A stretch of 64,000 nt of DNA from a virus. The notes beneath the pieces were generated by a model. The model was not told the origin of the DNA, did no database searches, and saw nothing but the letters and a program-made list of their open reading frames with translations. Where the stretch lies: positions 1 to 64,000 of the IMG/VR virus record IMGVR_UViG_3300020596_000023; one strand, 5' to 3'. How positions within the stretch are numbered: position 1 is the stretch's first letter; each line of letters starts with the position of its first letter. Shown one piece after another: positions 6,741 through 42,477 of this stretch. The position numbers and the translations under genes were made by a program.

Positions 6741-6776
6741 CTACCTCTAAGTTCCCACTTAGGGGTAGCTTTTTTT
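6741..6776 (+). terminator. intrinsic terminator
   Basis: CTACCTCTAAGT / ACTTAGGGGTAG stem plus T7. Confidence 0.75.
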
Positions 6777-6841: not shown

Positions 6842-7348
6842 ATGAAATCGGTCTATGGTTTATTATTATTCCTTTCAGGAATTTTTGTGGCTGGCTCTAA
6901 AAGTCCAGAACAAATTATCAGTTACATTAAAATAACTGATACTGTACAAGTGTTAGTACCTACAACAGCGGAAGTTTATTTATTAGCAAGATTAATTGAA
7001 TCAGAAGCTAGTAGATCACAAACCGGTGTTGAAAGAATATCAGGCAGAATAGCTGCCGGCAATGTTGTAATGAACAGGTTACGAGCAGATTTGAAATCTG
7101 GTAAAACCGTATCTCTTAAAAAGATAATCTACAAAAAAAATCAATTTTGTGGAATCAAGGTTAAAAGATTTCGAGATAAGCCAAGTAGAGAATCTTTGAT
7201 AGCTGCAACAATTGCACTATTAGATTTGAACTTACTGCCTGATAATATACTGTTCTTTAATTCTCCTAATGCTCCTAATATTTGGAATAAGACAGAATTA
7301 GTGGAATGGGCTAGAATAGCAAAACATTCATTCAAATATAGATCATAA
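6842..7348 (+). CDS. cell wall hydrolase (SleB/Hydrolase_2 family) with N-terminal hydrophobic segment
   Basis: LLARLIESEA, AAGNVVMNR, NQF, LFFNSP, IAKHSF. Confidence 0.85.
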   Translation: MKSVYGLLLFLSGIFVAGSKSPEQIISYIKITDTVQVLVPTTAEVYLLARLIESEASRSQTGVERISGRIAAGNVVMNRLRADLKSGKTVSLKKIIYKKNQFCGIKVKRFRDKPSRESLIAATIALLDLNLLPDNILFFNSPNAPNIWNKTELVEWARIAKHSFKYRS

Positions 7349-7352
7349 TACA

Positions 7353-7553
7353 ATGTCAACAAAAGGAAACACGCTTTCAATGACTATTGAAGTTGAATTG
7401 GGAGATGCTTTTAATTTATTACATGAAGAAGAATTCACTTGGTTTCAAAATGAAGTATTAGTGGGTAATGGAACTTTAGTGTTACACTCTGACGAAATAG
7501 GAGATATTATTGGAATTATAAAGAAAGTTTCAGATGTGCGGTATATCTCTTAA
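7353..7553 (+). CDS. small acidic hypothetical protein (cassette-like)
   Basis: 66 aa, followed immediately by an attC-like hairpin. Confidence 0.65.
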   Translation: MSTKGNTLSMTIEVELGDAFNLLHEEEFTWFQNEVLVGNGTLVLHSDEIGDIIGIIKKVSDVRYIS

Positions 7554-7559
7554 TATTAC

Positions 7560-7627
7560 TTATAACGTTTGGCAGCTAACTGAAAGTTTTTGTTTTTAAC
7601 AAAAATTTTAGTTAGCTGCTGTTAGCA
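7560..7627 (+). mobile_element. attC-like recombination site
   Basis: TTATAAC-GTTT, long imperfect palindrome GCAGCTAACTGAAAG...TTTTAGTTAGCTGC, then T-GTTAGCA. Confidence 0.55.
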
Positions 7628-7682
7628 AATGTAAAATCTCCCTTTTGAGTGTAAGATGCTCGTAATAATAAGCAATAATAAA

Positions 7683-7892
7683 ATGGAAACAGAACAAAGA
7701 CAAAAATGTGTAGTAAGGTATCAAATTGCAACTTATTCGGGAGAAGAGGTTGTTTATTGTGATGCCAATGATGATAATGATGTTATCACCGCAAAAGCCA
7801 AACGCCAGATAAAGCAAAAATCAGGCGGTTCACTACCCTTTGGTTACGAAAGCTATAATATCATTGAGCGTGAAGATTACTACGGAGGATGA
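7683..7892 (+). CDS. small hypothetical protein (cassette-like)
   Basis: Likely start METEQRQ; bounded by GTTAGCA (7621) and TGCTAAC (7919). Confidence 0.7.
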   Translation: METEQRQKCVVRYQIATYSGEEVVYCDANDDNDVITAKAKRQIKQKSGGSLPFGYESYNIIEREDYYGG

Positions 7893-7986
7893 GTGCGTTG
7901 GAGAAATAATTTTATTTCTGCTAACATACAGCTTTGCATAAATGGTGCTTATGGAAATAACTTTATCAACTTAAAACAAAATAACA

Positions 7987-8202
7987 ATGGCACACGAAAA
8001 CTTCAATTTAAACAAAACATCTCTTGACGAAAAGCCTGTAGTAGCTACTGTAGGCTTAACTAAAGAAGAGGTTGATGAATTACAACTCCTTAGATTCTTA
8101 CAAACAAGTAACGAAAGATACCTGAGTACATGGGAGTTTGATAGAATTGCAGAATTGAGTAGAAAAGAGTTTGAAAATGCAGGGTCGACCCATTGCATCT
8201 AA
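7987..8202 (+). CDS. small hypothetical protein (cassette-like)
   Basis: 71 aa; stop TAA lies inside the left end of the next attC-like site. Confidence 0.7.
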   Translation: MAHENFNLNKTSLDEKPVVATVGLTKEEVDELQLLRFLQTSNERYLSTWEFDRIAELSRKEFENAGSTHCI

Positions 8203-8300
8203 TGTTTGTCGGCTTAGCAATGTCTGGTGGCATTGCACAAAGGTTCAAGTTTACAACAAGGCTTATTGCCACCGAATATAGCCAAACCGCTGTTATGTGC
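8195..8300 (+). mobile_element. attC-like recombination site
   Basis: CTAAT-GTTT, arms CGGCTTAGCAATGTCTGGTGGCA / TGCCACCGAATATAGCCAAACCG, then CT-GTTATGT. Confidence 0.55.
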
Positions 8301-8477
8301 TAGGCGGATTATCAGCACTAAATTTAATTTGAAACGAAATGAATGAAGAGCAAGCAATGGATAATCATTTGTTAATGGTCAAAAAGATGAACTATTTGAT
8401 TATGAACGAAAGTTCTCAAAATAACATATAAGTTGTAGCTTTACGTTGGTGGTGTTTCCACCATTAAACTACTAATC

Positions 8478-8927
8478 ATGAAATTCTTAAACAAACCACT
8501 TCTCCTCTTCCAGTTTCTTTTGCTTCCTGTGCTATTAAGCGCACAGGATCCTTACAAGATTACCAATGAAAAAGCCATTGGCTTTGCAGCGATTGCGGCA
8601 GGATCTCTGATGGATGGGATCTTGGAAGGCTATCAGTTCGATGGGCGCAAGTCTTTTGAACGGAAATGGGGATCAGACCCTTATGGGTTTTGGGGTTCAA
8701 AATCATGGCAAGCAACGCATACGTGGTATGCCAAAACCATGGGCGTACCGGACTTTTACCACATGGCAGATGACACGCGAAAAATAGGCTACATCACAGG
8801 AGGTGTCATGATTGGTATTGGAATGAAGGATAATAAAAAATGGTGGCACTATGCTTTGGATATTGGGATTAGCGCTGTCGTAAGTGCTGGAGCAAAACAA
8901 GTAGGACTAATTTGGGTTAGGAATTAA
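8478..8927 (+). CDS. putative exported/membrane protein
   Basis: Signal peptide ending LSA|Q, Gly/Trp-rich amphipathic segments, visibly higher GC than neighbours. Confidence 0.75.
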   Translation: MKFLNKPLLLFQFLLLPVLLSAQDPYKITNEKAIGFAAIAAGSLMDGILEGYQFDGRKSFERKWGSDPYGFWGSKSWQATHTWYAKTMGVPDFYHMADDTRKIGYITGGVMIGIGMKDNKKWWHYALDIGISAVVSAGAKQVGLIWVRN

Positions 8928-8966
8928 CTTCCCTGCACTGAGCTAATCTAAATTAAAATTTTTACT

Positions 8967-9221: not shown

Positions 9222-11564
9222 ATGACTCTATATCTTCAAAATGAATCTGATCAAACTATACAGCACCTTCATAAGCTCTTCAACGAATCTTATGAAGGTG
9301 TTTTTGTTTGCTTAGACACGGAAACTACAGGCTTAGATGTATTAAAACTAAGGCCATTACTAATGAGCTTAAATAGTAATTATGGTACTATAGTTTTAAA
9401 TCTAGCTAAACTCAGTAAAGACTTTATTAAATCTATATTTAATCAATATGGATTGAATAAAACGTATTTAGCTCACAATGCTAAATACGATGGTAATGTA
9501 ATGTATCACTATTATGGACTGGATTTGGATTGGTATTGCACAATGGTATCAGATCAAAAGCTTTCACAAGGATTAGGTTATTCTGAAAAAGATCGGCCTG
9601 ATGGAGTTAGATATAATTTATCTGATACGGCACAAAGACATCTAAAAGTTCCCGCATTAAATAAAGAGCAGCAATTATCATTTGTAGATTATTTAGGTTC
9701 TGAGTTTAGTGATGCACAGATTGAATATGCTGGTAAAGATGTAGACTATCTATATCCTATTATGAAAAATCAATTATTGTGTGCTGCTCAATTTGGAATA
9801 AAAAATCTACTAACTGAAAGTGAGATTCTGTCAGAAGTTTGTATTGCGGAATGTACTGGTGTTTTAATAGATAGAACTAAATGGATTAATATTGCTGAAC
9901 AAGTATATGCAGAGATTCAGAATATTGCAAAGGAATTAGACCAGATAGTAAAGACTAATAAAGTTCTGATTAAAAAAAGAGGATTTATACCATTGTCTGG
10001 TAATTACGATTTATTTACTGAAACTGATTGGGTAAGAGAGTTCTATCAAAATAAAAGCAGCAAAGCTAAACTAACTGCTTTATTCAATCAAGGAGTTAAT
10101 TGGGCCAGCCCTACACAAGTAACTTTTATTTGTGGCCAGCTAAACTATCCCCTACCTGTTAAAGATGAAGATATTTATTTAGTACCAGATATTAAAGTTA
10201 CTAATAACAAAAGAAAAGTTATAAGTAGTATTAAATATACTACCAAAAAGGACAAGCTAGAAGTAATGCTTCAAAACTTTGAGCATCCTAATAAAGAGTT
10301 TATTGAATTGATATTCAAGTACAACTCGTTACGAACGCTATTTGCAACTTATGGAGGTAAGTGGTTAAATAAGCTGCATAATCATAGAATCTATACTGCT
10401 TTTAGAACTATGTCTGCTGTTACAGGTAGGTTTCAATCAGGTGGTGGTACTAAATTACCTGATAAAATCAATACTCAGAACATTCCAAGTGCCGGAGATT
10501 ATCGGCACTGTTTTGTCGCTGACAAAGGTCACAGCCTAATCACAGCGGATCTTTCCGGAGCAGAAGTAATTATCCTTGCCGATAAAGCGAATGAGCAGAG
10601 TGTGTACGACAGAGCCGTTATTGACGATGATTCTCACAGCCCTGTAGCACAATATACATGGCAACAAATATATTTATTCCGAGCAGGGAAAGAGATGGGA
10701 TTGTGGTACGACGTAGCCAAGTTCAGGCAGGAAAAGGACAATCCTGCTGTCAAAGGATATTTTAGCCAGTATGGTACAATTGAAGCTAAAGAATGCTTTA
10801 GGCTATCTCAAGAACTTATAGTATCTAAAAAAGAGAATAAGCATATTAGAAACAAATTCAAGAGTTCCACATTTGGTGGAATCTATGGAATGGAATTTCG
10901 TAAGTGTGCAGAAACTCTTGGAATAGATTGGGAAGAAGCTAAAGTAGCTTTACAATCCATGAAAGATTGTATGCCTAAATGCTATGAGTATGTAGAATCG
11001 GAAGTTAAGCTTGCCGCTAAACAGGGTTACTCTATACTTAATAAATACGGTGGAAGTAGAATTACTTTTCCTTTAACTCAAGCATTAGTACATCAAAACA
11101 AAAATGCTTATGATAGTATTGATGCAATCAAAGAAGTTAAAGCAGTCCGTAATTATCCTATGCAGGGTACTCAAGCTGATATGATTAAGCTTGCAATAGC
11201 TAACATCAGAAAGCTTAGAAAGATTGGACTTGAAGTAACTCTATTATTACAAGTGCATGACGAACTGGTCTATCAGACACCAGAACAATTTGATGGAGTT
11301 TCAAAAGCTTGGCTAAATAATAAAGCCAATGCTTTTGAATTTACGATAAAGTACGAAAGAGAAGTAAGCTTTGATTCGGCATTAAAATTTTGTGAAAAAT
11401 ACTCAGATCATGTAGTTTCTATTAAAACTCCTGGATTAAGTATTAACTATAAAATCAGTAATGCTTTGACTATTCCAATAATCATGCTGTATTCTGCTGA
11501 TCTATATCTTGAGCGATTTACTATGGGTTCAAGTTTAGAGGTGCAGAAATATTGGCAGAAATAA
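9222..11564 (+). CDS. polA: DNA polymerase family A with 3'-5' exonuclease
   Basis: Exo DTETTG, HNAKYD, YAGKD; TGRF; motif A DLSGAE; motif B RNKFKSSTFGGIYG; NYPMQGTQAD; motif C VHDE. Confidence 0.96.
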   Translation: MTLYLQNESDQTIQHLHKLFNESYEGVFVCLDTETTGLDVLKLRPLLMSLNSNYGTIVLNLAKLSKDFIKSIFNQYGLNKTYLAHNAKYDGNVMYHYYGLDLDWYCTMVSDQKLSQGLGYSEKDRPDGVRYNLSDTAQRHLKVPALNKEQQLSFVDYLGSEFSDAQIEYAGKDVDYLYPIMKNQLLCAAQFGIKNLLTESEILSEVCIAECTGVLIDRTKWINIAEQVYAEIQNIAKELDQIVKTNKVLIKKRGFIPLSGNYDLFTETDWVREFYQNKSSKAKLTALFNQGVNWASPTQVTFICGQLNYPLPVKDEDIYLVPDIKVTNNKRKVISSIKYTTKKDKLEVMLQNFEHPNKEFIELIFKYNSLRTLFATYGGKWLNKLHNHRIYTAFRTMSAVTGRFQSGGGTKLPDKINTQNIPSAGDYRHCFVADKGHSLITADLSGAEVIILADKANEQSVYDRAVIDDDSHSPVAQYTWQQIYLFRAGKEMGLWYDVAKFRQEKDNPAVKGYFSQYGTIEAKECFRLSQELIVSKKENKHIRNKFKSSTFGGIYGMEFRKCAETLGIDWEEAKVALQSMKDCMPKCYEYVESEVKLAAKQGYSILNKYGGSRITFPLTQALVHQNKNAYDSIDAIKEVKAVRNYPMQGTQADMIKLAIANIRKLRKIGLEVTLLLQVHDELVYQTPEQFDGVSKAWLNNKANAFEFTIKYEREVSFDSALKFCEKYSDHVVSIKTPGLSINYKISNALTIPIIMLYSADLYLERFTMGSSLEVQKYWQK

Positions 11565-31164: not shown

Positions 31165-34100
31165 TTAACAGGTAACAGCATCTTCATCATAAGAATCCAA
31201 TCTTGAGCTATCACCAATATCTTCTATATTTCCAGAGTACTGATTCATGTAGCTAAAGAAAGCATTCTGTTCTGGTATTACACTAAATTGCCCAGACTCA
31301 GTTTTAATATAACCATTGCTTAATCTATTCACAGGTGTAAACCAAAATACGTCATCTACTTTGGCAACACTTGTTTGGATTATCTCAGTAGTATTACCAT
31401 CCTTTATAATAAAGGTATAGAAGTTAGGATTAAATCCTAATTCTTTCTTTTTAGCCTTGCTTAGACTGAATGTATTCATACCATTTATATCTCTAAAAGC
31501 ATCTCCTTCTGGTAATGTATTCTTATTGATAAAGTTAATCTTAGAAAGCTTAGGATCTTTCCAACCATTACGACCAGCTAAATCAATTAAACCTTCATAA
31601 GTTATTTCTAGTTCAGTTAATCCAAACTTAGAAGCTTGTTGTAAGCCATCTAACCAACCTCTTGTTAGTAATTCAGTAACAGGTATGTAATTACCAAAGC
31701 TATTACCAGAGAATGCAAAACCTTGAGTTATATAATTATACTTAATTAAATCTTCACCTAAATCTTTCAGAAACTCACTGTTTGAATTAAGTAAAGCTGC
31801 AAAGCTATCAGTTAGATAAGTATCTAAACCATCACTAAGATGAGGCTTATCAAATTTAATTTCATAGAAACTCTTAAGATTAAAATCACCTTCACTAATC
31901 TTTGGTGATAAATGATATAAGATATTAGTTTCTGAAATTGACTCTCTTAACTTGTACTTAATAAACCAGAGTTTATTAGCTGTTGATAACTGCTTAAACT
32001 CATCTATGTCCATTTTAGTATTAGTATTAGGGACAGCTTTTAGAATCCTAGAGATTTCCACATCAGTCATATCGTTTCGCAATAAGCTGAATGAAGCAAC
32101 TTCTACAATTTTCTTGTGGACTTCCGGAGAATACTTTGTTCCGTATGTATTAGCTGCTGTAAGCACCTCACCCTTTAAATCCAAGAAGTACTTATCTAAT
32201 ACCCTCAAATATGCTTCCATGTTGTCTCTATAAGTCTTAATAGACTTATAAGCATCTGTAGTATCCAGTACAGTTCTAACGTCTCTAGCTTCATCACCAT
32301 ACATGGAATATACAGTAGAATCAGAAGCATTTAGACTGTCATAGCTGTCTATGGATTTAAACAATTCAGGAATATTAGTAGCTTTGGTTCTATCAGGTGT
32401 AGTACCATCCATGACTTTTTTATAGTCGTAATTTATCTTAGTTAATCTATTCCAAGTTTTATATAAGCCAAGTTGATACAAGTATTGATTTTCAGCTTTT
32501 TGCAATTCCGCTATACTGGCTTTAGCAAACGACTTAGGTTTTTCATTCTTAAAGTAAAGAATAGAAGCTTCCATTTCTGCACTATTCAAGTCTACTGCCG
32601 GTATATCTTTATAAGCTACGTAAGGAGTATTGGTCAGCTTAGAAATATCTTTTAAAGCTTTCATATAAGCTTTAACAGGATCAACGGCTTTACCATTATA
32701 AATCATGCTATTCTGAGATGCACTGTAAGCTCTCATAATTACAGGTTGAATCAGAAGCAAAGAAGCTTCTTTTAATGGTATGCCTAAAGTGCGCATCAGC
32801 ATATAGTTTGAAGCCGTAGCTAAATTCAGGTTCAATAATGTTCCTTCTTTTACTATATCCAAAACGTTAGCTAAGGTCTTAGCCAATCCGATAGAAATTA
32901 AATCTCCATTAGGATCAGTAAAGTCTTGATTGTTCCAACCAAACTGCTTGTGGTTAATTGTGGCTTTGTTACCTTCAACAGCAACCTGCCCATACTTATC
33001 TTGCAAGTCTTTTAAATCGTATTTAGACAAATCGTAAGAAACCCCGATTAGTTCTGTAGTAGCTAACTTCAATTTCTGTACAATCGGAATCATACTATTA
33101 TAAACTGCTGCAATACCTTTAAGATGTGTACCCATCATGTTAGTAGAACGAAGTTTGTCTTGTGCAGCCAAGCTATTATGATTCTGACCATCCTCTACTA
33201 TATTCAGTAACTTCTTTTGTTCTCTAATAACTACCTTAATTTCTTCCACAGAAGACGGAACAATATGTTCTTCTATTTGAGAAGGATGTTCTATAATAGC
33301 TTTGTAACTGTCAAAGATAAAGTTGTTTAGTTCTTTGTTATCCCAATCTTTAACAGGTTTAGCTAAGTTGTACTTGATTGGATTGTTTTCTTTATCCAAA
33401 TATTGGAAGAGCAAGTATTCGCTATCTACGTCAAAATCATGGCCTGTCTGAGCTACTAATGCTGCTGGCAATACAATAGTGCTACCCACAGCTTCCGGTA
33501 AGAATCCAACTACTTTTAATGACAAAAAGCTATACTTACCTTCAAGAGGCGTTCTATGTCCTAGAATATTTCTAGCTTCTTCTGGTAACTCATTAATGTT
33601 AATCCTCTGACCATTTTCAAAAAACTTGCTAGTCCAAGCGGGTAGTAAACACTCAGTTTCTATATACTTACTTTTACCATCAGAAACTATTGATTGTTTC
33701 AGATTGATTTTACCAGTAGCCTTAATTCGTTCTACGATTTCAGTAGTAAAGCTCGTTGTATCAATACTATCAGTATCAATAAAACTACTAATAAACGAAT
33801 CAGACAATAATGTAGCATGACCACCGGCTATTGGAATCTTAATACCTTTCTGAATAAAAAGACTAATTAGTAAGCTTTGAAACTTATTACTAAAGCTTGG
33901 TATAGCTAAAGAAATAACAAAGTTATCACCAGCTTCATTGATTTTTAATAAGTCCTTATAATGATGCGGAAGATTGTTTTTATTCATGTAATCTTCCAGA
34001 ATTACAGCTACATTTTTAGGATCACTGATAGATTTAATTAATTCATTAGTACCTTTTGTAGATAATTCTGAGAACACTGATTGAATCTTTTCATGCAGTT

Positions 34101-37100
34101 CTTTACCAGTAAATGTGTTACCCTTAATATCAAATTCAACAGCATCAGGTATATTACTGAATAAAACTTTTTTAGCTTGAATTGATAACGGATTCGTGGT
34201 GTCTTTCAAATGTTCTGGAACATCCAATTGTACACCCCATTGCTCATTGTCTAATTCAAGTACATTCAGATTAGCAATAGTAAGTTCGTTAGAACTTAAA
34301 TTTTCTAAGCTTACTGTAGACACCCGTTTGTTGCCAACCTTAACAGCAGATTTGGTATAAATGTGAGATAAGTCTTTAGGGGCAACAGCTAATAATTGTT
34401 CTAATACTGTACCTTTAATTAAACCCGGAATCAATATTTGTACAGATGTTTTAATTTGTACATTCTCCATCGTATTAGTAACACTGTTATAAGATCTATT
34501 AGCATAGTAAGGCTTTAATACCTGAAGTACTTCTTTCAAATACTTATCGTTGTAGTCCCTACCAGCCCTAAGATCAGCTATAAGCTTTTGCATAGTCTTA
34601 CCACGAATACCCCGATCTTGTAAATACTTTTCAAAAAAGTCCAGTGTGATGAAACCTTGCCCATCTGTAGAATTTACAGATAAGTATGGAGACATCTTAT
34701 TATAAACATCTTGTTCTAACGCATTTTTAATTCCTGAACCAAATGCAACAGAATGGTCATAGCTTAAACTTGTATATTTCTTATTAGAGACTTGTAAAGC
34801 TTTAGCTAAGTTAACACTGTTTGGCTCTAGGGTGTCAGGTGTTATTATAACATCTGGCACAACTATATACTTACTACGTTTACCTCGATGCTTAGTTGAA
34901 AGATATTGGGTAGGTGAAATTAATTGCTTAGATCGTTTATTGTGATCTGTTATACTTTTGTATTCAGAATTATTACCATTAAATAAACTAGCAATCTCTT
35001 GTTGAGCTATAAAGTTATTTAGAACAAACTCATAAATCATATCAGATTCATTACTGTAAGAAGATTTCTTAACATCTTCTTTGAGATCACTAGCTATAGC
35101 AGAATAGAGGTTAAAGCTTTGAGCTACTTCAACCTTTACAAAGTTATTTATGAACTTATCCAGCAATCTACGTTTGTTTGGAGATAAAGTAGAAGTATCA
35201 TAAACTCCATTATAAAATATAGACAATGGAAAAGCTAGCTTAGATTCTTCACCTTTAAAAACTAACTGGTCTTTTTCATCCAATCCTATAATATCGCTAA
35301 TCTTTCTAACTTTACCTTTTTCCGTATAAGTCAAAGACAAAGTTTGAAATACTTGACCAGTTGGTAATCCATCAGCATCTATTATAATAGGATTGTTATT
35401 ATCATCTACAGATTTGTAGTGATGATTTACAAGAAGTTGATCTTTGACTTCATCAGATAGAATCGTAGTATCTGCAAATAATAACAGTCTAGCATTATCA
35501 GCTTTTCTTAAATCATGATAGATTATATTTAGTAAAGCATTCTTTAACGGAGTATTATCAATCAATTCCCCATTAACAATTCCATTATATTTAGGAGCTT
35601 TAATTACAGCTTGATTGCTACTATCTGATAAGGTTGGTAAACTGTAATAGCCATAAGCTTTTTCCTTTAAGTATAGAGCAAGCTTAGAAGCAGACCAATC
35701 TAAATCAGTAACACCATCATACATTTTACCTGTAAATGTATCAGCATCGGTAATTCCATTAAACCAATAGAATTTAAAGTTTTTAGCATTATTGTCTTTC
35801 AAATCCATAGTCTTGAAGTCAACAATCGCATTCAACCAGTTACTGTACTTCAAAGCATTGTCTTGTAGATAAGTTTGAACCATATCTACAATAGTATTAT
35901 AAGCGTTCATTTTATTTATAGTACGCTTATTAAATACCTGAGCTAATCTGCTAAAGAATTTATTTATAAACAAAGGCTTCTGCAAAGCATATTGCAAAGT
36001 TCGTTCAGCATTGTAAAAGCTTGGCTCTTTTAGATCTAAAAACACTTCTTCAAAGAATGCAGCAATTTCACCAACTCGTCCTTGCTCATCAAACGTAATC
36101 TTATCATGAATCAGAGTTTGATTAAACAATTCTTCGCCAAGCTTAAATATAGCTGCTCTAATTCTTTCAGCTATTTCAGGTTTAGTTCTAGTCTTAACTT
36201 CACTTTTTTCAAAGTATGTCGTATTACCAACAGCATCCAAAGCTAAATCTAATTGAGGCTTTGTTATAGTAATGCCTAAAGCTCTAAGCATGGATAACAT
36301 ATCTTTCTTAGTAGCAGAATCTACACGATCTTTGCTTTTACTCAAAGCTTGTCTAACTTTAATATTCCATTCACGAAACTTCTGAATCTTAGCAGAAGTA
36401 ATCAAGCTTTTTCCTTTATTGCTATTGTAAGATTCTACTACAACTTTAACAGCATCGGCCATACTATTAGTAAGTCTGTAACTAATAGTAGGAACTCGTA
36501 ATGCTAAAGTTTTATCAGTAGTATGAGTTAATTGAATTGAATTAACTTTAGGCTTATTGAAAGTTGTAAACAACTTCTCTTGGTATTCCTCATCAGTTTT
36601 AAGTCTTTGATAAATTAAAGCAAAGCTTGGATTCAATTTAGCTAACTCTAATATTTTAGACATCATTTCATCGATGTCAATAGAATCTGCTAATTGCGTA
36701 CTAAGACTACTGTAGATTATAGAGAAGTTTTCTACTTCTGGCAATTCCGCTAAGTTGTCTTTACTTGGCACGAAACTGAATATAGGGTTTCCCGAAGCGT
36801 CAAAAGTAAACTTAAACGAACTAATTTTCTCAGTTGTCATTAAGAATCGCTTCAATTCAAAATCAACCGTAGCTTTAGAACTTACTTTAGTCTGAGATGC
36901 ATCATCCCAAAGCTTACTCATTTGTTGTCGGGTTAAAGCCGATGTATCAATATTTTCATCAGAGCTTACATCAACTTTAAGGTTGTTCTTAACATATTCT
37001 ACAACTTTACTCCAATAAGTGTTATCGTTAGAATCTAACAGATTCATCAGATAAGTTGTAGTTTTATAGGCTATAGAATCTTCGTCTTTACCAATTAGAT

Positions 37101-40100
37101 TTTTAGCTAAAGTTAATTTGAACTGGTTTTTCAAAGTAGGAACTTCACCAGATTCAATCATTTCTGGAGTTATAGCAGATTTATATTTATCTCCATAAGC
37201 TTTAATAAATCTCATAGAAATTAATCCACCATATTGAATATATTTAAGTTGTTCGTCTGGCTTGAATATCGCAAAAGCATCTGGCAAAGCTTGACCTGTA
37301 GGAGCTTTAGAGAATCTGAGTATGTCTTGGTTTGGATAATTCATTTTAGCAGAGTTTTTAAAATCACCTCTACTAGCACTTTCAAACAGTAAATCAATAC
37401 GATCAATTTTACCAAAGTAAGTTTGAAGCATTCTATATAATTTCTCAAAAAATGCTTTTACCTTACGAGAGAATCCTTGTGGTTCTTTGCCAACTTGTTT
37501 AGTCAGCATAAAGCCTCTAAACTTCTCAGCTAAAAATTCTTCTACTCTAAGTTTGGAATCTTCTGTCAGTAAATCTTCTTCTAGTCCATATCTTTTATTA
37601 GCTTCTTCTAACAAATTCAATCTATCTGATTCATTCAAATACATATTGAATATAGCATGGAAAGCTTCGTGGTACTCAGTACCAACTATACTATATTTAG
37701 ATAGAGTTACAGCAGCTTTTCTAAATACTCCATAAACTACATCACCATTATCCATTAATTGTTCTGGTAATATTTCAATAGGAATTTCGTCACCTAGTAT
37801 ATTCTGGAAGTTTTCAATTTGAGATTGATTAGACTCAATTAATTCGTCTTTAGTAGAATTAGTAGAAGCTTTGAAGAATAATGCATCTGTGAGCAAATCA
37901 GTTAAATCTGAATCAGTAGAATCTTGAATAGAATTAGGATCAATTGAAGTGATAGCATCAACTTGAGAAAGATCGGAATTAACCGGGCTTTCCTCTTCTA
38001 CCGGCAATGGGTTAAGAACTGTATCACTGACTTTATCTTTCCTAACGTTCTTAGCTTCACTAACTTCCGTCTTACTCTCATCACTCCAAGTTTTTAATAC
38101 AACTCGAGTATTAACATTATCAACGCCATTATTAGCAGCAATCTTACCACCAAATAAAGACAGTATATTACCCTCAGAATCTTCTGTAGTTTTTATATTA
38201 ATTCCAAACCTATCACTATTCAAGATGCTATCATGAAGTTCTTGTTCACGACCATCTTCCAAATATAAGTTGTACCTTTTTCCAGACAGTACATCTTTAA
38301 GAGTGTCAGAAAATACTTCTCTATTAGCGTCATTTAGAACTAATATGTCTTTACCATTTATAGGAATCTTATTTCCAACATTGCTGTTATATTCCTCATA
38401 AGATTCGTACTTAGTTTTCTTACCAGTCCAAACCCTTTTAGTTAATCTGATCTCATCATTAGGAGCTACATAGATTGTGTACAACTCTGTATAATCTCCA
38501 TTTAATATTTCTATTCGACCTTTACTATTAGCATTTGGACCATGAACTAAAAACGTAGGAGCATATAGGTTATCTTTGGCATCTCGAACATTTGATCTAA
38601 ACAGAGTTATCCTATTAATAGCTTTTTTTATCTCAATCATTGAATCATCTTTAAAAGGACTTAACCCAGTCTTTAATCCTTTTATAAGTTGATTTAGTAA
38701 TTTAATAACGTCTGTAATTGACTCAGAATCTAATTTGTTACCGCTTATATATAATGGTATAGCAGTTTGAGTATCGTCATAGTCGGTAAAATCTATTGAC
38801 AAATTGGGGCTAGCTGGAACTAATACAAAAACATTACTTGAACTGTACAACATATCTTCATTGTACGTGGCACTAATGGACTTAGTGTCGTAGGCTTGAC
38901 CCTCACCGATGAGTGGGGATAATGTAGAGCTTACAACAGAACCGCCATCTTCGGGAATGTGGTACAGCCGTACAGACATAGCTTTGGCAATCCTGGACAA
39001 TAGAGAAAGCTGATTATTCCCAGTTTTTTTCCTTGCACCAGCAGATACTTTCTTTAATAAAATTTTACTATTTTTGTTTTTAGCAAAAGCAGTTCTAATT
39101 TTTACAGTCTCTAATAAGTTAACTCTACGAGCTAACGCAGCGTTTGAATTACCATCGGATTCAAGTCTGTTTATTTCTTTCTCAATAGAACTAACTCTAT
39201 TGATATAACCAATCAAAACATTTTTATAATAAACACCTATTGGAGCTTCGTTAGGGTCAGTTGATTTGAAGTTATCTTCGACTTCGGGTATTTTCAAATC
39301 AAGCTCAACTTGACCATCTTTTTTAATAATCTCTCTAAGCTCGTTAAGAGCTTTTACAGTTTTAGCATCGTTATCAGATATAACGATAGTTGTATCAGTC
39401 TCAGATACTATATCTGGATTGACTATACTATGCAAGTAAATACTTGCAAATTGGCTTTCATCTGATCTTTCCTGAGCTATTGAATCTTGTTCAGTTATAG
39501 CTTTGATAGGTTCTTGTTCTGTATTAGTATCAGTATTGTAAACTGGAACAAGTTCAGCAACTGTGTTTACTGTATCTAACTCTAATACAATCTCATCTGG
39601 AATATTATCTACAACTGGAACTTCCAGATTAATTGATTCATGTTCAGAGTTTAATTCAGTTGCAATAATTTCTCCAACTGTTGTAGTTGTTTCAGACTCT
39701 ATGACTTGTTGTACAATAGCAGAATTATCTTGAGTATCTTCAGATAACTCCTGAACAGTTAGTTCAAGTTGTACAGCAGATTTAACTGATTTAGTAGCTC
39801 TGGATTTTCTGGTTTTTTTAAAATTAGATTTAACGGATTTGGTAGCTCTGGATTTTCTGGTTTTTTTAGGATTAGCTATAACAGAGTTAAGATCAATTAT
39901 AATAGCTTGATTTTCTTCAATTGGTTTAATTAGTTCAATTGATTTATTTGCTTCATCAGAAACAATAGTTTCATCAGAAGCAATAGTTTCATCAGAAGCA
40001 ATAGTTTCAGAATCAGTAATAGTACTAATAATGTCATTTTCTAAATCAGTAGTATCAGCAATAGAACTCAAACTATCTTCTTCTGGATCAACTAACGTAA

Positions 40101-42477
40101 TGTTTCCAATTGCTTTACTACGATTAGTTAAGTTTATTCCAAGTCTGCGAGATAATTCAGATACCCTTCGTTTGGCTTTAGATATTAACGGTTCTTGATT
40201 TTCCTGTAATTCTTTTAAAGCTTCCTTTAAGATTTTGGCTTCTTCCTTATTCTTAGGGTTTAATTCAGCTTTAATTTCTTTTACCGTCTTACCTTCTTTG
40301 ATTTTAGTATCAATATCTAAAATCAATTTAGCTTTGCTATTATCTGCTTTTTTCTTGTCTTGAGCTTTAAAGGCATTTTCAACTTCTTTGATTCTATCTG
40401 GCTTTAAAAAGTCATTAGCAAGAATATCCAGTTGATTTGAAAACGCTGTAGCTATCTTAACCTCTGTCATAGCATCAACCGCAGCTTTCAAATCTTCTGT
40501 AACTTCACCTTTATAAACTAAGTCTTCACTTATTCCTTGTTGTCCTAATTTTTCAATAGCATTATACAATCTATTCTGATCTGGAAAAAACTTAGTTATT
40601 TCTGGATTGTTTTTTAATACAGATATAGCTTGCTTAGTAGATAACTTTTCTACAAGCAATTGCTTACTATTCCGTTCTACAGGATCAGAACTATTACTTT
40701 GTAAAATGTTAGTAGCTTTGGCTAAACCTGCTTGACTTAATTGATTGAAATAATTCTTGTCTTTTTCAGCTTGCGTTATAATATCAGCTAAAGCTTGCTT
40801 TATATGTGCCGGCTGTTTAGAATAGAATAATTTCTGATAAACTGATTTGTAACTATTTTCAGCAGCAGTAGCACCAGCTTTTAAAGAATAAAATACAACT
40901 TCATCTAAGCCAGTAATTCCATTAGTATTAGGATCAGATGTAACATTCTCTTTAAAGTTTTTGCTTGCAAAAGTATCCATGAGCAAATCCATGTTTCCAG
41001 TTTTGGAAGCAGCAGTACCCATATCAAAGCCAGACTTGTAACTCTCAAGCTTAATTTCTTCAGTAGCATCTTCTTTAGATAAACTACCATTGTTATAAGA
41101 TTTTACAATAGCTTGAATTCTAGTATTGGCTTCTTTGATAAAACCTAGCCTACTTTCGATCTCTCCAATCTTGGAACTGGTAGCAGCTTTATTATCTGCT
41201 TTATTCATAAATCCACCAACAACATTGAAAGCTTTACCGCCAAGCATTCCAAAAAATCCAGCCTCTAAACCTTTATCATCAAAAGCATCTTCTAAAAACT
41301 TAGTAACAACATTGTTACCTTTTTTACCTAAGTTAGTTCCAACTCTTTCTCCTGCTTGACTAGAAGCATAGTTTATCATTTCTTCTGGAAACTCACTAAA
41401 TCCAGAAGCTAATGGCTTCAAGTATTTTTCGATAATACCCGGATTATATTTAACCCCAGACTTTAAAACTTCGTTCTGAGCAACACTAACTTCTTTACTT
41501 ATAATACCAGTCCTAGTCCTACCTCTAATGCCTTTGAATATTCCAGCTACCTGAAATAAATCAAAAGCAAAATTCATGGTGTTTAACTTATAAGTTGTCC
41601 AACCTGATTTGTTTCCTAAAGCTTTAGCAAATTGTTCCCTAGTTAAATCTTTAGGAACTTCATTCTGTCCGTCTAAAACTTTTTGAAATTCCTCATCACT
41701 CAAATCAGCTAAGACTTTGTAAGAACTGTTCTTAACATTTACTGAAACCTCCGCAGCATCTCTCATAGATTCAGCATTACGCATGAATCCAGCAATTGTA
41801 CCAACTTCACCCCAATACTTAGTAGCATCACTAACTTTATCAGCAAGTTTTACAGTCTTTGCTAACCATCCAGCACCTTTAACTATACCAGTACCACCAG
41901 CTAACATACTAATACCGCTAGCTATAGATACCAGGTTTTGTGCCCACCAACCTGTATCTCCCCATTGCCAAGATTCGCCGGGATTCTTCTGATATATAGG
42001 AGCATATTCAGCACTTTTTTCTCTAATGCCTTTACCAAACTCAGTCATCCAATTACCAAACTCATATTCTTCTTTGGCTAAATAATCTGCAAGTCTACCT
42101 CCAGTAATATCTCCAAAAGCACCAACACCTTCAATTGTACCACCTATCAATTCACCTACCACAGCTTGATTTAAAAATCCCCAAACTTGGCTACCCTTCG
42201 TTTGTTTACTTGCTCTAACTTTATCTAAGCTATCCATAGTATATACACCATAAGGCATATACTTTTCATACTCTTTAGGATCAATTGTAGTATTTGATCT
42301 ATCATCAGATAAAATAGCACCTGTCTCTACATTAGGACTAGGAGTAGACAAGTTCTTCTGCAAGCTTGTACCTAATCTTGTAGGATCCGGTCTGACATCT
42401 TTAACTAAAGTCTGATTATCAAATCCTGTATTTTTATTCAAGCTTAAACCAAGCCCAGTACTTCTCTGCTTTCCCAT
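31165..42477 (-). CDS. giant virion-associated DNA-dependent RNA polymerase polyprotein
   Basis: 3770 aa; QTGHDFDVDS catalytic-type motif (33424-33438), STDGQG, HRTP; HEAFH zincin-like motif (37657-37671). Confidence 0.88.
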   Translation of the reverse strand: MGKQRSTGLGLSLNKNTGFDNQTLVKDVRPDPTRLGTSLQKNLSTPSPNVETGAILSDDRSNTTIDPKEYEKYMPYGVYTMDSLDKVRASKQTKGSQVWGFLNQAVVGELIGGTIEGVGAFGDITGGRLADYLAKEEYEFGNWMTEFGKGIREKSAEYAPIYQKNPGESWQWGDTGWWAQNLVSIASGISMLAGGTGIVKGAGWLAKTVKLADKVSDATKYWGEVGTIAGFMRNAESMRDAAEVSVNVKNSSYKVLADLSDEEFQKVLDGQNEVPKDLTREQFAKALGNKSGWTTYKLNTMNFAFDLFQVAGIFKGIRGRTRTGIISKEVSVAQNEVLKSGVKYNPGIIEKYLKPLASGFSEFPEEMINYASSQAGERVGTNLGKKGNNVVTKFLEDAFDDKGLEAGFFGMLGGKAFNVVGGFMNKADNKAATSSKIGEIESRLGFIKEANTRIQAIVKSYNNGSLSKEDATEEIKLESYKSGFDMGTAASKTGNMDLLMDTFASKNFKENVTSDPNTNGITGLDEVVFYSLKAGATAAENSYKSVYQKLFYSKQPAHIKQALADIITQAEKDKNYFNQLSQAGLAKATNILQSNSSDPVERNSKQLLVEKLSTKQAISVLKNNPEITKFFPDQNRLYNAIEKLGQQGISEDLVYKGEVTEDLKAAVDAMTEVKIATAFSNQLDILANDFLKPDRIKEVENAFKAQDKKKADNSKAKLILDIDTKIKEGKTVKEIKAELNPKNKEEAKILKEALKELQENQEPLISKAKRRVSELSRRLGINLTNRSKAIGNITLVDPEEDSLSSIADTTDLENDIISTITDSETIASDETIASDETIVSDEANKSIELIKPIEENQAIIIDLNSVIANPKKTRKSRATKSVKSNFKKTRKSRATKSVKSAVQLELTVQELSEDTQDNSAIVQQVIESETTTTVGEIIATELNSEHESINLEVPVVDNIPDEIVLELDTVNTVAELVPVYNTDTNTEQEPIKAITEQDSIAQERSDESQFASIYLHSIVNPDIVSETDTTIVISDNDAKTVKALNELREIIKKDGQVELDLKIPEVEDNFKSTDPNEAPIGVYYKNVLIGYINRVSSIEKEINRLESDGNSNAALARRVNLLETVKIRTAFAKNKNSKILLKKVSAGARKKTGNNQLSLLSRIAKAMSVRLYHIPEDGGSVVSSTLSPLIGEGQAYDTKSISATYNEDMLYSSSNVFVLVPASPNLSIDFTDYDDTQTAIPLYISGNKLDSESITDVIKLLNQLIKGLKTGLSPFKDDSMIEIKKAINRITLFRSNVRDAKDNLYAPTFLVHGPNANSKGRIEILNGDYTELYTIYVAPNDEIRLTKRVWTGKKTKYESYEEYNSNVGNKIPINGKDILVLNDANREVFSDTLKDVLSGKRYNLYLEDGREQELHDSILNSDRFGINIKTTEDSEGNILSLFGGKIAANNGVDNVNTRVVLKTWSDESKTEVSEAKNVRKDKVSDTVLNPLPVEEESPVNSDLSQVDAITSIDPNSIQDSTDSDLTDLLTDALFFKASTNSTKDELIESNQSQIENFQNILGDEIPIEILPEQLMDNGDVVYGVFRKAAVTLSKYSIVGTEYHEAFHAIFNMYLNESDRLNLLEEANKRYGLEEDLLTEDSKLRVEEFLAEKFRGFMLTKQVGKEPQGFSRKVKAFFEKLYRMLQTYFGKIDRIDLLFESASRGDFKNSAKMNYPNQDILRFSKAPTGQALPDAFAIFKPDEQLKYIQYGGLISMRFIKAYGDKYKSAITPEMIESGEVPTLKNQFKLTLAKNLIGKDEDSIAYKTTTYLMNLLDSNDNTYWSKVVEYVKNNLKVDVSSDENIDTSALTRQQMSKLWDDASQTKVSSKATVDFELKRFLMTTEKISSFKFTFDASGNPIFSFVPSKDNLAELPEVENFSIIYSSLSTQLADSIDIDEMMSKILELAKLNPSFALIYQRLKTDEEYQEKLFTTFNKPKVNSIQLTHTTDKTLALRVPTISYRLTNSMADAVKVVVESYNSNKGKSLITSAKIQKFREWNIKVRQALSKSKDRVDSATKKDMLSMLRALGITITKPQLDLALDAVGNTTYFEKSEVKTRTKPEIAERIRAAIFKLGEELFNQTLIHDKITFDEQGRVGEIAAFFEEVFLDLKEPSFYNAERTLQYALQKPLFINKFFSRLAQVFNKRTINKMNAYNTIVDMVQTYLQDNALKYSNWLNAIVDFKTMDLKDNNAKNFKFYWFNGITDADTFTGKMYDGVTDLDWSASKLALYLKEKAYGYYSLPTLSDSSNQAVIKAPKYNGIVNGELIDNTPLKNALLNIIYHDLRKADNARLLLFADTTILSDEVKDQLLVNHHYKSVDDNNNPIIIDADGLPTGQVFQTLSLTYTEKGKVRKISDIIGLDEKDQLVFKGEESKLAFPLSIFYNGVYDTSTLSPNKRRLLDKFINNFVKVEVAQSFNLYSAIASDLKEDVKKSSYSNESDMIYEFVLNNFIAQQEIASLFNGNNSEYKSITDHNKRSKQLISPTQYLSTKHRGKRSKYIVVPDVIITPDTLEPNSVNLAKALQVSNKKYTSLSYDHSVAFGSGIKNALEQDVYNKMSPYLSVNSTDGQGFITLDFFEKYLQDRGIRGKTMQKLIADLRAGRDYNDKYLKEVLQVLKPYYANRSYNSVTNTMENVQIKTSVQILIPGLIKGTVLEQLLAVAPKDLSHIYTKSAVKVGNKRVSTVSLENLSSNELTIANLNVLELDNEQWGVQLDVPEHLKDTTNPLSIQAKKVLFSNIPDAVEFDIKGNTFTGKELHEKIQSVFSELSTKGTNELIKSISDPKNVAVILEDYMNKNNLPHHYKDLLKINEAGDNFVISLAIPSFSNKFQSLLISLFIQKGIKIPIAGGHATLLSDSFISSFIDTDSIDTTSFTTEIVERIKATGKINLKQSIVSDGKSKYIETECLLPAWTSKFFENGQRININELPEEARNILGHRTPLEGKYSFLSLKVVGFLPEAVGSTIVLPAALVAQTGHDFDVDSEYLLFQYLDKENNPIKYNLAKPVKDWDNKELNNFIFDSYKAIIEHPSQIEEHIVPSSVEEIKVVIREQKKLLNIVEDGQNHNSLAAQDKLRSTNMMGTHLKGIAAVYNSMIPIVQKLKLATTELIGVSYDLSKYDLKDLQDKYGQVAVEGNKATINHKQFGWNNQDFTDPNGDLISIGLAKTLANVLDIVKEGTLLNLNLATASNYMLMRTLGIPLKEASLLLIQPVIMRAYSASQNSMIYNGKAVDPVKAYMKALKDISKLTNTPYVAYKDIPAVDLNSAEMEASILYFKNEKPKSFAKASIAELQKAENQYLYQLGLYKTWNRLTKINYDYKKVMDGTTPDRTKATNIPELFKSIDSYDSLNASDSTVYSMYGDEARDVRTVLDTTDAYKSIKTYRDNMEAYLRVLDKYFLDLKGEVLTAANTYGTKYSPEVHKKIVEVASFSLLRNDMTDVEISRILKAVPNTNTKMDIDEFKQLSTANKLWFIKYKLRESISETNILYHLSPKISEGDFNLKSFYEIKFDKPHLSDGLDTYLTDSFAALLNSNSEFLKDLGEDLIKYNYITQGFAFSGNSFGNYIPVTELLTRGWLDGLQQASKFGLTELEITYEGLIDLAGRNGWKDPKLSKINFINKNTLPEGDAFRDINGMNTFSLSKAKKKELGFNPNFYTFIIKDGNTTEIIQTSVAKVDDVFWFTPVNRLSNGYIKTESGQFSVIPEQNAFFSYMNQYSGNIEDIGDSSRLDSYDEDAVTC
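37975..38008 (+). repeat. dispersed motif A copy 5
   Basis: GGAATTAACCGGGCTTTCCTCTTCTACCGGCAAT inside the RNAP gene (antisense). Confidence 0.9.
39778..39867. repeat. in-frame duplication, 48-bp period
   Basis: Encodes KKTRKSRATKSVKS twice. Confidence 0.9.
39952..40005. repeat. 18-bp tandem repeat x3
   Basis: TTCATCAGAA(A/G)CAATAGT, encoding TI(A/V)SDE. Confidence 0.9.

Follow-up and report, generated by a model that had tools for sequence, protein, structure and literature searches.

The stretch of viral DNA analysed here (the window; 64,000 nucleotides, positions 1 to 64,000 of IMG/VR virus record IMGVR_UViG_3300020596_000023) represents 64 kb of a 73-kb record and has a G+C content of approximately 31%. 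A Pfam match to Crass_capsid (E 9e-27) identified the source as a crAss-like phage, and PolA, a Dda-like helicase and a 3770-aa open reading frame (ORF) are also encoded. Between the genes for a cell-wall hydrolase (6842-7348) and a DNA polymerase (9222-11564) lies a run of small genes separated by palindromic sites, and the subject of this study is these hairpin spacers and the paired sequences that bracket the genes between them. From the letters alone, the original prediction had described the locus as an integron-cassette-like array of small genes with attC-like hairpins, through which the phage would capture accessory genes by means of a host or helper tyrosine recombinase. The features of the locus are listed below, with X and X' denoting the bases that follow a GTTA and those that precede the next TAAC, respectively.

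6842 to 7348, + strand: cell-wall hydrolase gene, 168 aa (PF07486 Hydrolase_2, E 1.5e-10); the left flank of the island and not a cassette
7353 to 7553, + strand: cassette 1 gene, 66 aa, from the ORF list; no PHROG or Pfam match
7563 to 7624, + strand: hairpin element H1, 62 nt, TAACG...TGTTA, a divergent member of the short class (fold, covariance model)
7621 to 7641, + strand: GTTA and X, the 5' bracket arm of cassette 2 (inverted repeat 7620-7637 / 7909-7926)
7683 to 7892, + strand: cassette 2 gene, 69 aa, from a widespread, function-unassigned family of small phage proteins (16 IMG/VR relatives)
7900 to 7925, + strand: X' and TAAC, the 3' bracket arm of cassette 2 (inverted repeat, population polymorphisms)
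7922 to 7986, + strand: degenerate element, TAACATA lacking hairpin and GTTA, then the leader of ORF 7987 (sequence; no match to model R1)
7987 to 8202, + strand: cassette 3 gene, 71 aa, whose stop is the TAA of TAATG; no Pfam match
8200 to 8295, + strand: hairpin element H3, 96 nt, TAATG...TGTTA, of the class of approximately 88 nt, with loop motif TTGCACAAAGGTTCAAGTTTAC (alignment, blastn)
8296 to 8341, + strand: ultraconserved leader, a small hairpin GTGCTA...CAGCAC (8297-8318) followed by an A/T-rich leader up to the ATG
8339 to 8431, + strand: 30-aa ORF after the leader, probably a remnant; the X' before TAACA at 8422 does not match (by eye)
8422 to 8477, + strand: truncated element, TAACATA and a small hairpin (8435-8472) lacking a TGTTA end (fold -13.5 kcal/mol, z = -2.1)
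8478 to 8927, + strand: cassette 5 gene, 149 aa, with a signal-peptide-like N-terminus; G+C 45-49%, compared with approximately 31% nearby

The two palindromic sites predicted to lie directly after small ORFs were located at 7563-7624 (site 1, H1) and 8200-8295 (site 2, H3), and all of the statements originally made about their sequence were correct. Site 1 starts with TAACGTTT at 7563, ends with GCTGTTA at 7624 and contains a 19-nt inverted repeat that is 89% complementary (7572-7590 and 7601-7619); its RNA fold of -28.9 kcal/mol (z = -6.0) was matched by 0 of 200 shuffled sequences. Site 2 starts with TAATGTTT at 8200, ends with GCTGTTA at 8295 and has arms that are 74% complementary (8210-8232 and 8267-8289), and its fold taken alone is insignificant (z = -1.1; 30 of 200 shuffles). 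The complementarity noted between GTTAGCA (7621) and TGCTAAC (7919-7925) turned out to be the head of an 18-nt inverted repeat, 83% complementary, at 7620-7637 and 7909-7926. The stop codon of ORF 7987-8202 does lie inside the left end of site 2, and the two truncated-looking sites, with TAACATA at 7922 and 8422, both lack a proper hairpin partner. In the window GCTGTTA is not enriched (14 matches, with 11.4 expected) and TAAYGKTTKG is not significantly so (3 matches, with 1.3 expected), so the above-chance status of the sites rests on homology rather than on enrichment of their end motifs. When the window was searched with filters off using a covariance model, R1, built from 29 foreign short-class elements, site 1 was the sole significant match (25.8 bits, E 3e-4; next best E 0.32). 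Site 2 aligns with 24 foreign elements of the mid-size class (approximately 88 nt), and site 2 with its leader (8200-8344) is 78.8% identical to contig L016 by blastn. ARAGORN found no tRNA genes in the window, in which there were also no Rfam matches at the gathering score; for the window region and six array loci, Rfam returned only miRNA-like noise with E up to 1-10.

The 46-nt leader behind site 2 (8296-8341) recurs as segments of 90-100% identity in otherwise unrelated viral contigs, and 8288-8342 is 94.6% identical to a sequence in the uncultured 635-kb megaphage LR745206. A 36-nt pattern drawn from it (8296-8331) was present in 35 IMG/VR contigs, which are 4 to 161 kb long and otherwise unrelated at the DNA level, and among the loci compared the leader precedes at least 15 different genes. 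It occurs as a single copy in the 73-kb record (nhmmer E 1.9e-20) and once in most others, and array fragment G007 (L071) carries it twice (8353-8416 and 10248-10310). The 10 bases at its start are complementary to the most frequent 3' flank, TAGCCTTGCACA-TAAC, and can also form a local GTGCTG/CAGCAC hairpin; these two pairings may be alternatives. The frame running through GCTGTTA and the leader (8227-8346) is open, with 39 aa from a GTG and a stop that overlaps the next ATG region. A conserved protein in this frame (CCG CTG TTA ... TGA) was considered and set aside, as diverged copies close the frame right after GTTA (e.g., GTTATAG); the ultraconserved type could perhaps still encode a tiny conserved peptide.

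On the basis of these comparisons, both sites can be assigned to a widespread family of hairpin spacers that separate small phage accessory genes. Members were found in at least 131 IMG/VR stretches, in the 635-kb megaphage, in the Polaribacter phage P12002L and in chromosomes of Flavobacteriaceae; the figure of at least 131 refers to the strict short-class pattern, and among the matches listed the contigs range from 4 to 362 kb. A loose scan for TAAC...GTTA folds was unspecific, with 2 and 5 matches in two shuffled versions of G005 and matches within ORFs, and therefore homology, covariance models and the strict asymmetric form were used instead. An accumulation of high-scoring segment pair starts at TAAC (56 exactly) is real, but the loci in question had been picked by their leader, and it was not used as evidence regarding the mobile unit. 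The order of the module is constant: behind the upstream stop there is a short flank, often (TAG)CCTTGCACA, then TAACG with 3-5 spacer bases, a variable stem of 12-25 bp with a conserved loop, 1-2 bases, TGTTA, a second flank, and an A-rich leader that ends at the ATG. The spacing is asymmetric, with 4-5 nt at the 5' side and 1-2 nt at the 3' side. In 63 curated elements the distance from TAAC to GTTA clusters in three classes of 48-52, 85-92 and 125-127 nt, each of which has its own conserved loop. In 29 distinct 48-mers, 96.8% of stem cells are paired compared with 74.6% in shuffles, a value reached by 0 of 500 shuffles; changes on both sides, which are compensatory, were seen in 10 of 12 stem pairs, and TAACG/TGTTA form an invariant 5-bp closure, including a G.U pair, in 29 of 29 elements. 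The length classes differ by approximately 38-39 nt, and the long loops look like two to four units of approximately 19 nt resembling CACAAAnGTTCAATTT (L026, L030, L033, L037); these units are also similar to the leader before start codons, and some called ORFs begin inside loops. No published description of the family, its size classes or the bracket rule given below was found in the literature searched, in which motif strings returned only unrelated primers, and the family is apparently undescribed.

A second regularity links each element to its neighbour. Each gene is enclosed by GTTA-X...X'-TAAC, such that the 14 nt after the GTTA of one element are complementary to the 14 nt before the TAAC of the next. 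For neighbouring elements in a first set, there were 8.5 Watson-Crick and 1.5 G.U pairs of 14, and 27 of 42 brackets had at least 11 positions paired, compared with 4.7 and 2.3 pairs (at least 11 in 3 of 50) for the two flanks of the same element and 4.5 and 2.3 pairs (75 of 1961) for random pairs. In a second set, which consisted of independent contigs found by a different pattern, the corresponding values were 10.7 and 1.2 pairs for neighbouring elements (23 of 30) and 5.1 and 2.1 pairs for same-element flanks (9 of 102). As a consensus, the brackets read GTTA-nnn-GCAGTGCT ... AGCATTGC-nnn-TAAC, the 3' arm of which includes the stop codon TAG; in 31 of 42 pairs, the seventh base behind GTTA takes part in a G.T pair. 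By eye, methylase gene 0054 of phage P12002L is bracketed according to the rule as well, and in the source phage two single-nucleotide polymorphisms, 7638 C>T and 7904 A>G, each convert a Watson-Crick pair of the cassette 2 bracket into a T.G wobble (pairing likewise by eye). This bracket geometry is that of integron cassettes.

The spacers stay the same as the genes beside them change. A unit of hairpin and leader of approximately 175 nt is about 93% identical in G005, L004, L013, L024 and L032, with different genes on both sides. Conversely, one gene (91% identical) is found in two different X/X' frames, each of them self-complementary, in G007 and L014. An 862-nt gene module common to G005 and G008 (89%) keeps TGTTA-X and X'-TAACG, and the adjoining hairpins are absent in G005.

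Dense arrays, in which almost all small genes have one element behind them, were found in five fragments (G006-G010) that are 8-19% complete by CheckV, corresponding to phages of approximately 160 kb. One of them has about 15 elements in 10 kb. The elements of G006-G010 are confined to small-gene regions, where they sit between a stop and the next start, and core gene blocks have none. Array phages encode UvsX, DnaB, RNR, PolB, portal and capsid proteins, and the neighbours of the elements include many DNA methylases as well as DnaB, DnaA-type helix-turn-helix proteins, ERF, YqaJ, HNH nucleases, thymidine kinase and RNA ligase. Smaller complete genomes have only one or two elements; there are two in a 92.5-kb genome with terminal repeats (G003). 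Orientation was counted for the strict asymmetric TAACG...TGTTA form in nine records: 45 of 60 elements are co-oriented with both flanking ORFs and none is anti-oriented; the orientation of 6 is ambiguous, and another 9 fall within called ORFs. The strand preference extends to the fold. The original prediction had proposed folding the bottom strand, as would be expected of attC sites, yet the gene-sense (top) strand is the more stable one in 48 of 63 elements. Single mismatches comprise 229 G.U and 32 A.C on the top strand and 173 and 81, respectively, on the bottom strand, and conserved G.U pairs and an asymmetric bulge on the 5' side are found on the top strand.

Natural variants of the source phage were recovered from sequencing runs. 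Part of the region is contained in 15 runs, all of DNA (12 from microbial mat, and 3 from freshwater with small shares), and variant structures were read from the contigs of four of them. In three of these four, there is a form that lacks 7356-7972 (cassettes 1 and 2) and has GCAG instead, with a joint of 7355 to 7973; here ORF 7987 gains seven N-terminal codons, and the hydrolase gene nearly abuts it. Forms that lack 8443-8936 and have 23 other bases instead (joint 8442 to 8937; X2 and X6, the latter at depth 989) were found in two of the four runs, as were forms lacking 8343/8344-8936 (joint 8342/8343 to 8937; X9 and X4). Many different sequences precede 8281-8288 and follow 8327-8343 in the same communities, and in one run other sequence lies directly before 8200 and directly behind 8295. 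In X6, a variant contig has a different TAAC-type end before 7943. The joints coincide with start codons or lie immediately behind them, rather than at G|TT. The island gains and loses genes in natural populations.

The remaining intergenic regions of the source phage carry ordinary G+C hairpins with T runs, and for this reason 7353-8927 looks like a foreign island. As part of the tentative explanation developed below, we take it to be a decayed accessory island of five genes. ORF 8478-8927, which has no family match in PHROG or Pfam and no relatives confirmed in viral contigs, looks like a recently acquired cargo gene and is missing from some variant populations; no relatives of ORF 7987-8202 were confirmed in viral contigs either. 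For the protein of ORF 7683-7892 (motif VKYQIATYSGE), 16 related proteins were found; the viral contigs that encode them measure 4 to 210 kb and differ widely in G+C content and neighbours. TAAC elements adjoin the gene in L043, L046/L047, L050 and L051, most relatives having none. In L043 (1300-1800), the relative sits inside an element, enclosed by 22-bp stem arms that include two G.T pairs, and TAACGG heads the left arm. Elsewhere in the window (31165-42477, - strand), the 3770-aa ORF adjoins ORFs of 1651, 1282 and 807 aa in the structural arm, and these could correspond to the giant virion protein/RNA polymerase block that crAss-like phages typically have.

Elements also occur in bacterial chromosomes. 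The leader pattern was found in three metagenome-assembled genomes, belonging to Flavobacterium, to Chitinophagales and, on a short contig, to a bin assigned to Oscillospiraceae. In 401 genomes from the family of the Flavobacterium genome, the strict short-class pattern had one match each in 11 and a reversed-pattern control had 0, and covariance-model matches were obtained in 20 of 61 host genomes, with a maximum of 8 in one genome and some clusters spanning a few kb. The genes next to the strict matches are ordinary ones, encoding two-component systems, TetR regulators, an amidohydrolase and an aldehyde dehydrogenase. Whether the host copies might be closed long hairpins was considered and rejected: the cis complementarity of their flanks (5.18 Watson-Crick pairs, compared with 4.51 at random; at least 10 paired in 4 of 39) exceeds random expectation only slightly. 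Three contigs of host genome G031 (C11, C12 and C16) begin 57-58 bases before a copy of the element (positions 57-104), as would be seen with a multi-copy repeat that breaks assembly. A subfamily of host copies (L207, L208, L210, L212, L216, L218, L230, L234, L240) has a further conserved flank of approximately 35 nt behind TGTTA, AACGAAGTTAGCTGAAAATTTTTACAAAGTCAA..., which on the gene-sense strand resembles by eye what we take to be the -33/-7 promoter consensus of Bacteroidetes.

The modular spacer system is common in phages of Flavobacteriaceae-like Bacteroidota. To account for what is established, that is, the family and its structure, the bracket rule, the co-orientation with phage genes and the presence or absence of genes in populations, we tentatively favour an explanation to which we give slightly less than even confidence: the spacer module would serve as punctuation at the level of the transcript, and genes would be swapped by recombination in the conserved spacers. 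We infer that the molecule that folds is RNA, since a transcript is the sole natural molecule in which X, the gene and X' are present on one strand, and since the sense orientation prevails by 45 to 0. On a polycistronic transcript, GTTA-X would pair with X'-TAAC to form a long-range helix of 16-18 bp that closes each coding region into a loop, and the local hairpin and this helix together could mark sites for the termination, processing or stabilisation of single messages, possibly by a host double-strand RNase. As the spacers are conserved across changing genes, the match between X and X' would soon be lost unless pairing were selected, which argues that the helix actually forms; the presence of the same gene in two self-complementary frames (G007 and L014) likewise calls for selection for pairing. 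Since the spacers are conserved and the genes are not, the spacers would also supply the homology for exchange, presumably by homologous or microhomology recombination, with whole ORFs swapped, gained and lost between co-infecting phages. This parallels the role proposed for the promoter-early stem-loops (PeSLs) of T4-like phages, whose genomic setting is also that of the arrays. The source phage would have acquired such an island, which would now be losing its structure.

Gene-enclosing processing stems are present in rRNA operons, and RNase III sites lie between the early genes of phage T7. In both cases, as in the spacers, long double-stranded stems flank or delimit the units of a polycistronic transcript. 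The T7 sites are local hairpins, whereas the spacers would add gene-enclosing stems, at which cleavage is putative, and we know of no such stems around protein-coding genes of phages.

Several observations weigh against a role in the transcript. Helices that enclose genes would, to our knowledge, be unusual for phage messenger RNAs. None of 11 records yielded a phage RNase III, and therefore a host enzyme must be assumed. The hairpins have no T tail directly behind them, and a generic scan called no terminators there; in the window it called 6741-6768 and neither hairpin site, H1 being passed over because no T tail follows, and neither site combines a G+C stem with a direct T run as intrinsic terminators do. 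In the brackets, G.U exceeds A.C by only modestly more than base composition would give (2.28 compared with 0.92 in random pairs), and a C-to-T bias of the coding strand could also be the source. There is also a conserved C.A mismatch (GGC/ACC) on the sense strand. Finally, host copies are opposite to their flanking genes in 23 of 28 model matches, the remainder being co-oriented (2), between convergent genes (2) or between divergent genes (1), and likewise in 9 of the 11 strict matches. Action on transcripts alone would not lead one to expect such a bias, except where selection removes sense copies, and the opposite orientation fits either selection of this kind or a process sensitive to the strand of the DNA.

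The next explanation is the integron-like one of the original prediction, in which the unit TTA-X-gene-X'-TAAC-hairpin-G would be a mobile cassette with a circular form, and the folded single strand X'-TAAC-hairpin-GTTA-X would be cut at G|TTA by a tyrosine or structure-specific recombinase supplied by a host, a helper or another phage. The arrays would then be clusters of attC sites lacking an integron-integrase (CALINs). We consider both the mobile cassette and its cutting in this manner unlikely, although the explanation has clear merits: integration of a circle at a fixed point in the hairpin site predicts the bracket rule without any selection, and in one run other sequence abuts the hairpin precisely at |TAATG (8200) and GTTA| (8295). 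As in attC sites and CALINs, the conserved feature is the fold and not the sequence, the ends are of the AAC...GTT type, with TAAC/GTTA invariant and stems that vary yet remain paired, lengths are similar (48-127 nt), one-way arrays stand behind small ORFs with stop codons inside the site, and each cassette begins with a sequence complementary to the site at its 3' end. The reversed host orientation would also fit a site whose activity is set by the strand exposed in replication.

The family has in fact been encountered by attC predictors. In the available text of Qi et al. 2023 (PMC9892861), 10,705 phage genomes were screened with IntegronFinder and HattCI, and 17 attC clusters without an integrase are described, one of them in the virulent Polaribacter phage P12002L. 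Its site P12002L_attC1 was called by HattCI but missed by the Infernal attC model, and of six sites it is given as the only one without a verified IntI1 junction (PMC9892861). Comparison with the oligonucleotide published for this site showed that P12002L_attC1 is a short-class member of the present family, located at KR136259 29973-30078 and adjoining methylase genes; DNA methylases are frequent cargo both here and in the phage CALINs of that report. Model R1 finds at least five family members in P12002L. The site attC2 of the same phage, which did recombine (PMC9892861), is a different sequence with none of these hairpins.

Capture by a tyrosine recombinase is not supported by our searches. 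That no integrase is visible was borne out, with 0 matches to PF00589 in the phage's own 73-kb record, and the domain was found in only 2 of 11 records: in two of the five larger records, where it lies 6-40 kb away from the elements, and in 0 of 5 array-rich fragments. It is absent from the complete 92.5-kb genome G003. An ORF upstream of the element in L033, taken by eye for an integrase, was identified by Pfam as an RNA ligase, and of the 11 records one has a Y1 transposase. The end boxes fit RYYYAAC/GTTRRRY only in part, with TTATAAC and GTTAGCA at site 1 and TCTAATG and GTTATGT at site 2, which has TAAT and lacks AAC; the invariants of the family are TAAC and GTTA, and some relatives have an exact GCCTAAC or GTTAGGC. 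The differences from attC sites include the absence of IntI, an outer complementarity of 16-18 bp where attC sites have 7, the asymmetric spacing, a better fold on the sense strand and spacers that persist while their genes change; in addition, the one member tested was not recombined by IntI1 as far as PMC9892861 reports. The conservation of hairpin and leader as one unit between differing genes also counts against an integron, because an integron would split the two between two cassettes. Moreover, the variant joints of the source phage do not fall at G|TT, and the module of G005 and G008 keeps TGTTA and TAACG without adjoining hairpins in G005. The cassette-like anatomy of small genes, structured sites and brackets is real and far more general than originally described, and on present evidence the integron reading captures the geometry of the system and not its mechanism.

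A related and somewhat less probable possibility is a cassette system independent of integrase, in which TTA-X-gene-X'-TAAC-hairpin-G would be exchanged via the strand-specific folded site, as a single-stranded DNA or RNA intermediate, by an unrecognised enzyme. If this were true, it would be a second, independently evolved and virus-native integron-like architecture, and the reversed orientation in hosts would reflect the exposed strand, as for integrons and IS200/IS605 elements.

Of the described systems, PeSLs (Arbiol et al. 2010, PMC2839356; Comeau et al. 2014, PMC4122927) come nearest to the hairpin spacers. According to the accessible text of these papers, PeSLs, like the spacers, are composite intergenic stem-loop modules between a stop and a start in the small-accessory-gene regions of large phages, and they are tied to the gain, loss and replacement of ORFs. 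The spacers could then be plain cassettes of this type, with the hairpin as terminator or attenuator, the leader as a host-type promoter and a bracket complementarity that has no function. We regard this as doubtful to the same degree as integrase-independent exchange and less likely than the integron-like explanation. The genomic setting in the arrays matches that of PeSLs, many X segments end in a T run, and some elements are followed by a motif resembling the -33/-7 consensus that we assume for Bacteroidetes (by eye). Such motifs were seen in only a few leaders, for example in G008 behind 2164, and most leaders are too short to hold a promoter; a sigma-70 scan gave 10 matches with 10.3 expected and hence no enrichment, sigma-70 being the wrong promoter type for Bacteroidota. 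Terminators elsewhere in the source phage are ordinary G+C hairpins with T runs, and the bracket rule, the invariant TAACG/TGTTA ends, the discrete length classes and the conserved loops would all be left unexplained. PeSLs as described have a sigma-70 consensus promoter and short G/C stems, whereas the spacers have the invariant ends, three classes with conserved loops, covarying gene brackets and a promoter that is putative. The spacers also cross crAss-like phages, a siphovirus, phages of approximately 160 kb, a megaphage and host chromosomes.

Correia elements of Neisseria and the repetitive extragenic palindromic (REP) sequences and bacterial interspersed mosaic elements (BIMEs) are miniature palindromic repeats, and the least probable explanation, which also ranks below the integron-like one, is that of a selfish miniature element of this kind (like miniature inverted-repeat transposable elements or REP sequences) that spreads in intergenic regions of phages and hosts with regulation as a side effect: it shares with these repeats short intergenic palindromes of discrete size, some promoter-like ends and many copies, and agrees with the occurrence beside housekeeping genes in host genomes, with the G031 contigs that begin just before a copy and with a hairpin that is present or absent beside the same module in G008 and G005, but no target-site duplication was seen in the flanks, host copy number is low, stems differ by compensated changes rather than being near-identical, the candidate transposase (Y1) is nearly always missing from the phage records, and neither the strict strand rules, with co-orientation at 45 to 0, nor the bracket rule is expected of random insertion.

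Phage accessory-gene regions show the fastest turnover of anti-defence and host-takeover genes, and the shuffling of such genes is known in detail only for T4-like coliphages, through their PeSLs. The family reported here is sharply defined and searchable by its invariant ends, three sizes and bracket rule, it marks accessory regions across very different phages whose hosts belong to an ecologically dominant group of bacteria, and it explains why attC predictors report "integron sites" in virulent phages of Flavobacteria. The bracket rule is a clean prediction whichever mechanism applies, and the Polaribacter phage P12002L is cultivable. Specialists would be surprised by the bracket rule, by the spread across phage families and by the reversed strand rule of hosts. 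The element could also mark accessory genes and hosts in metagenomes.

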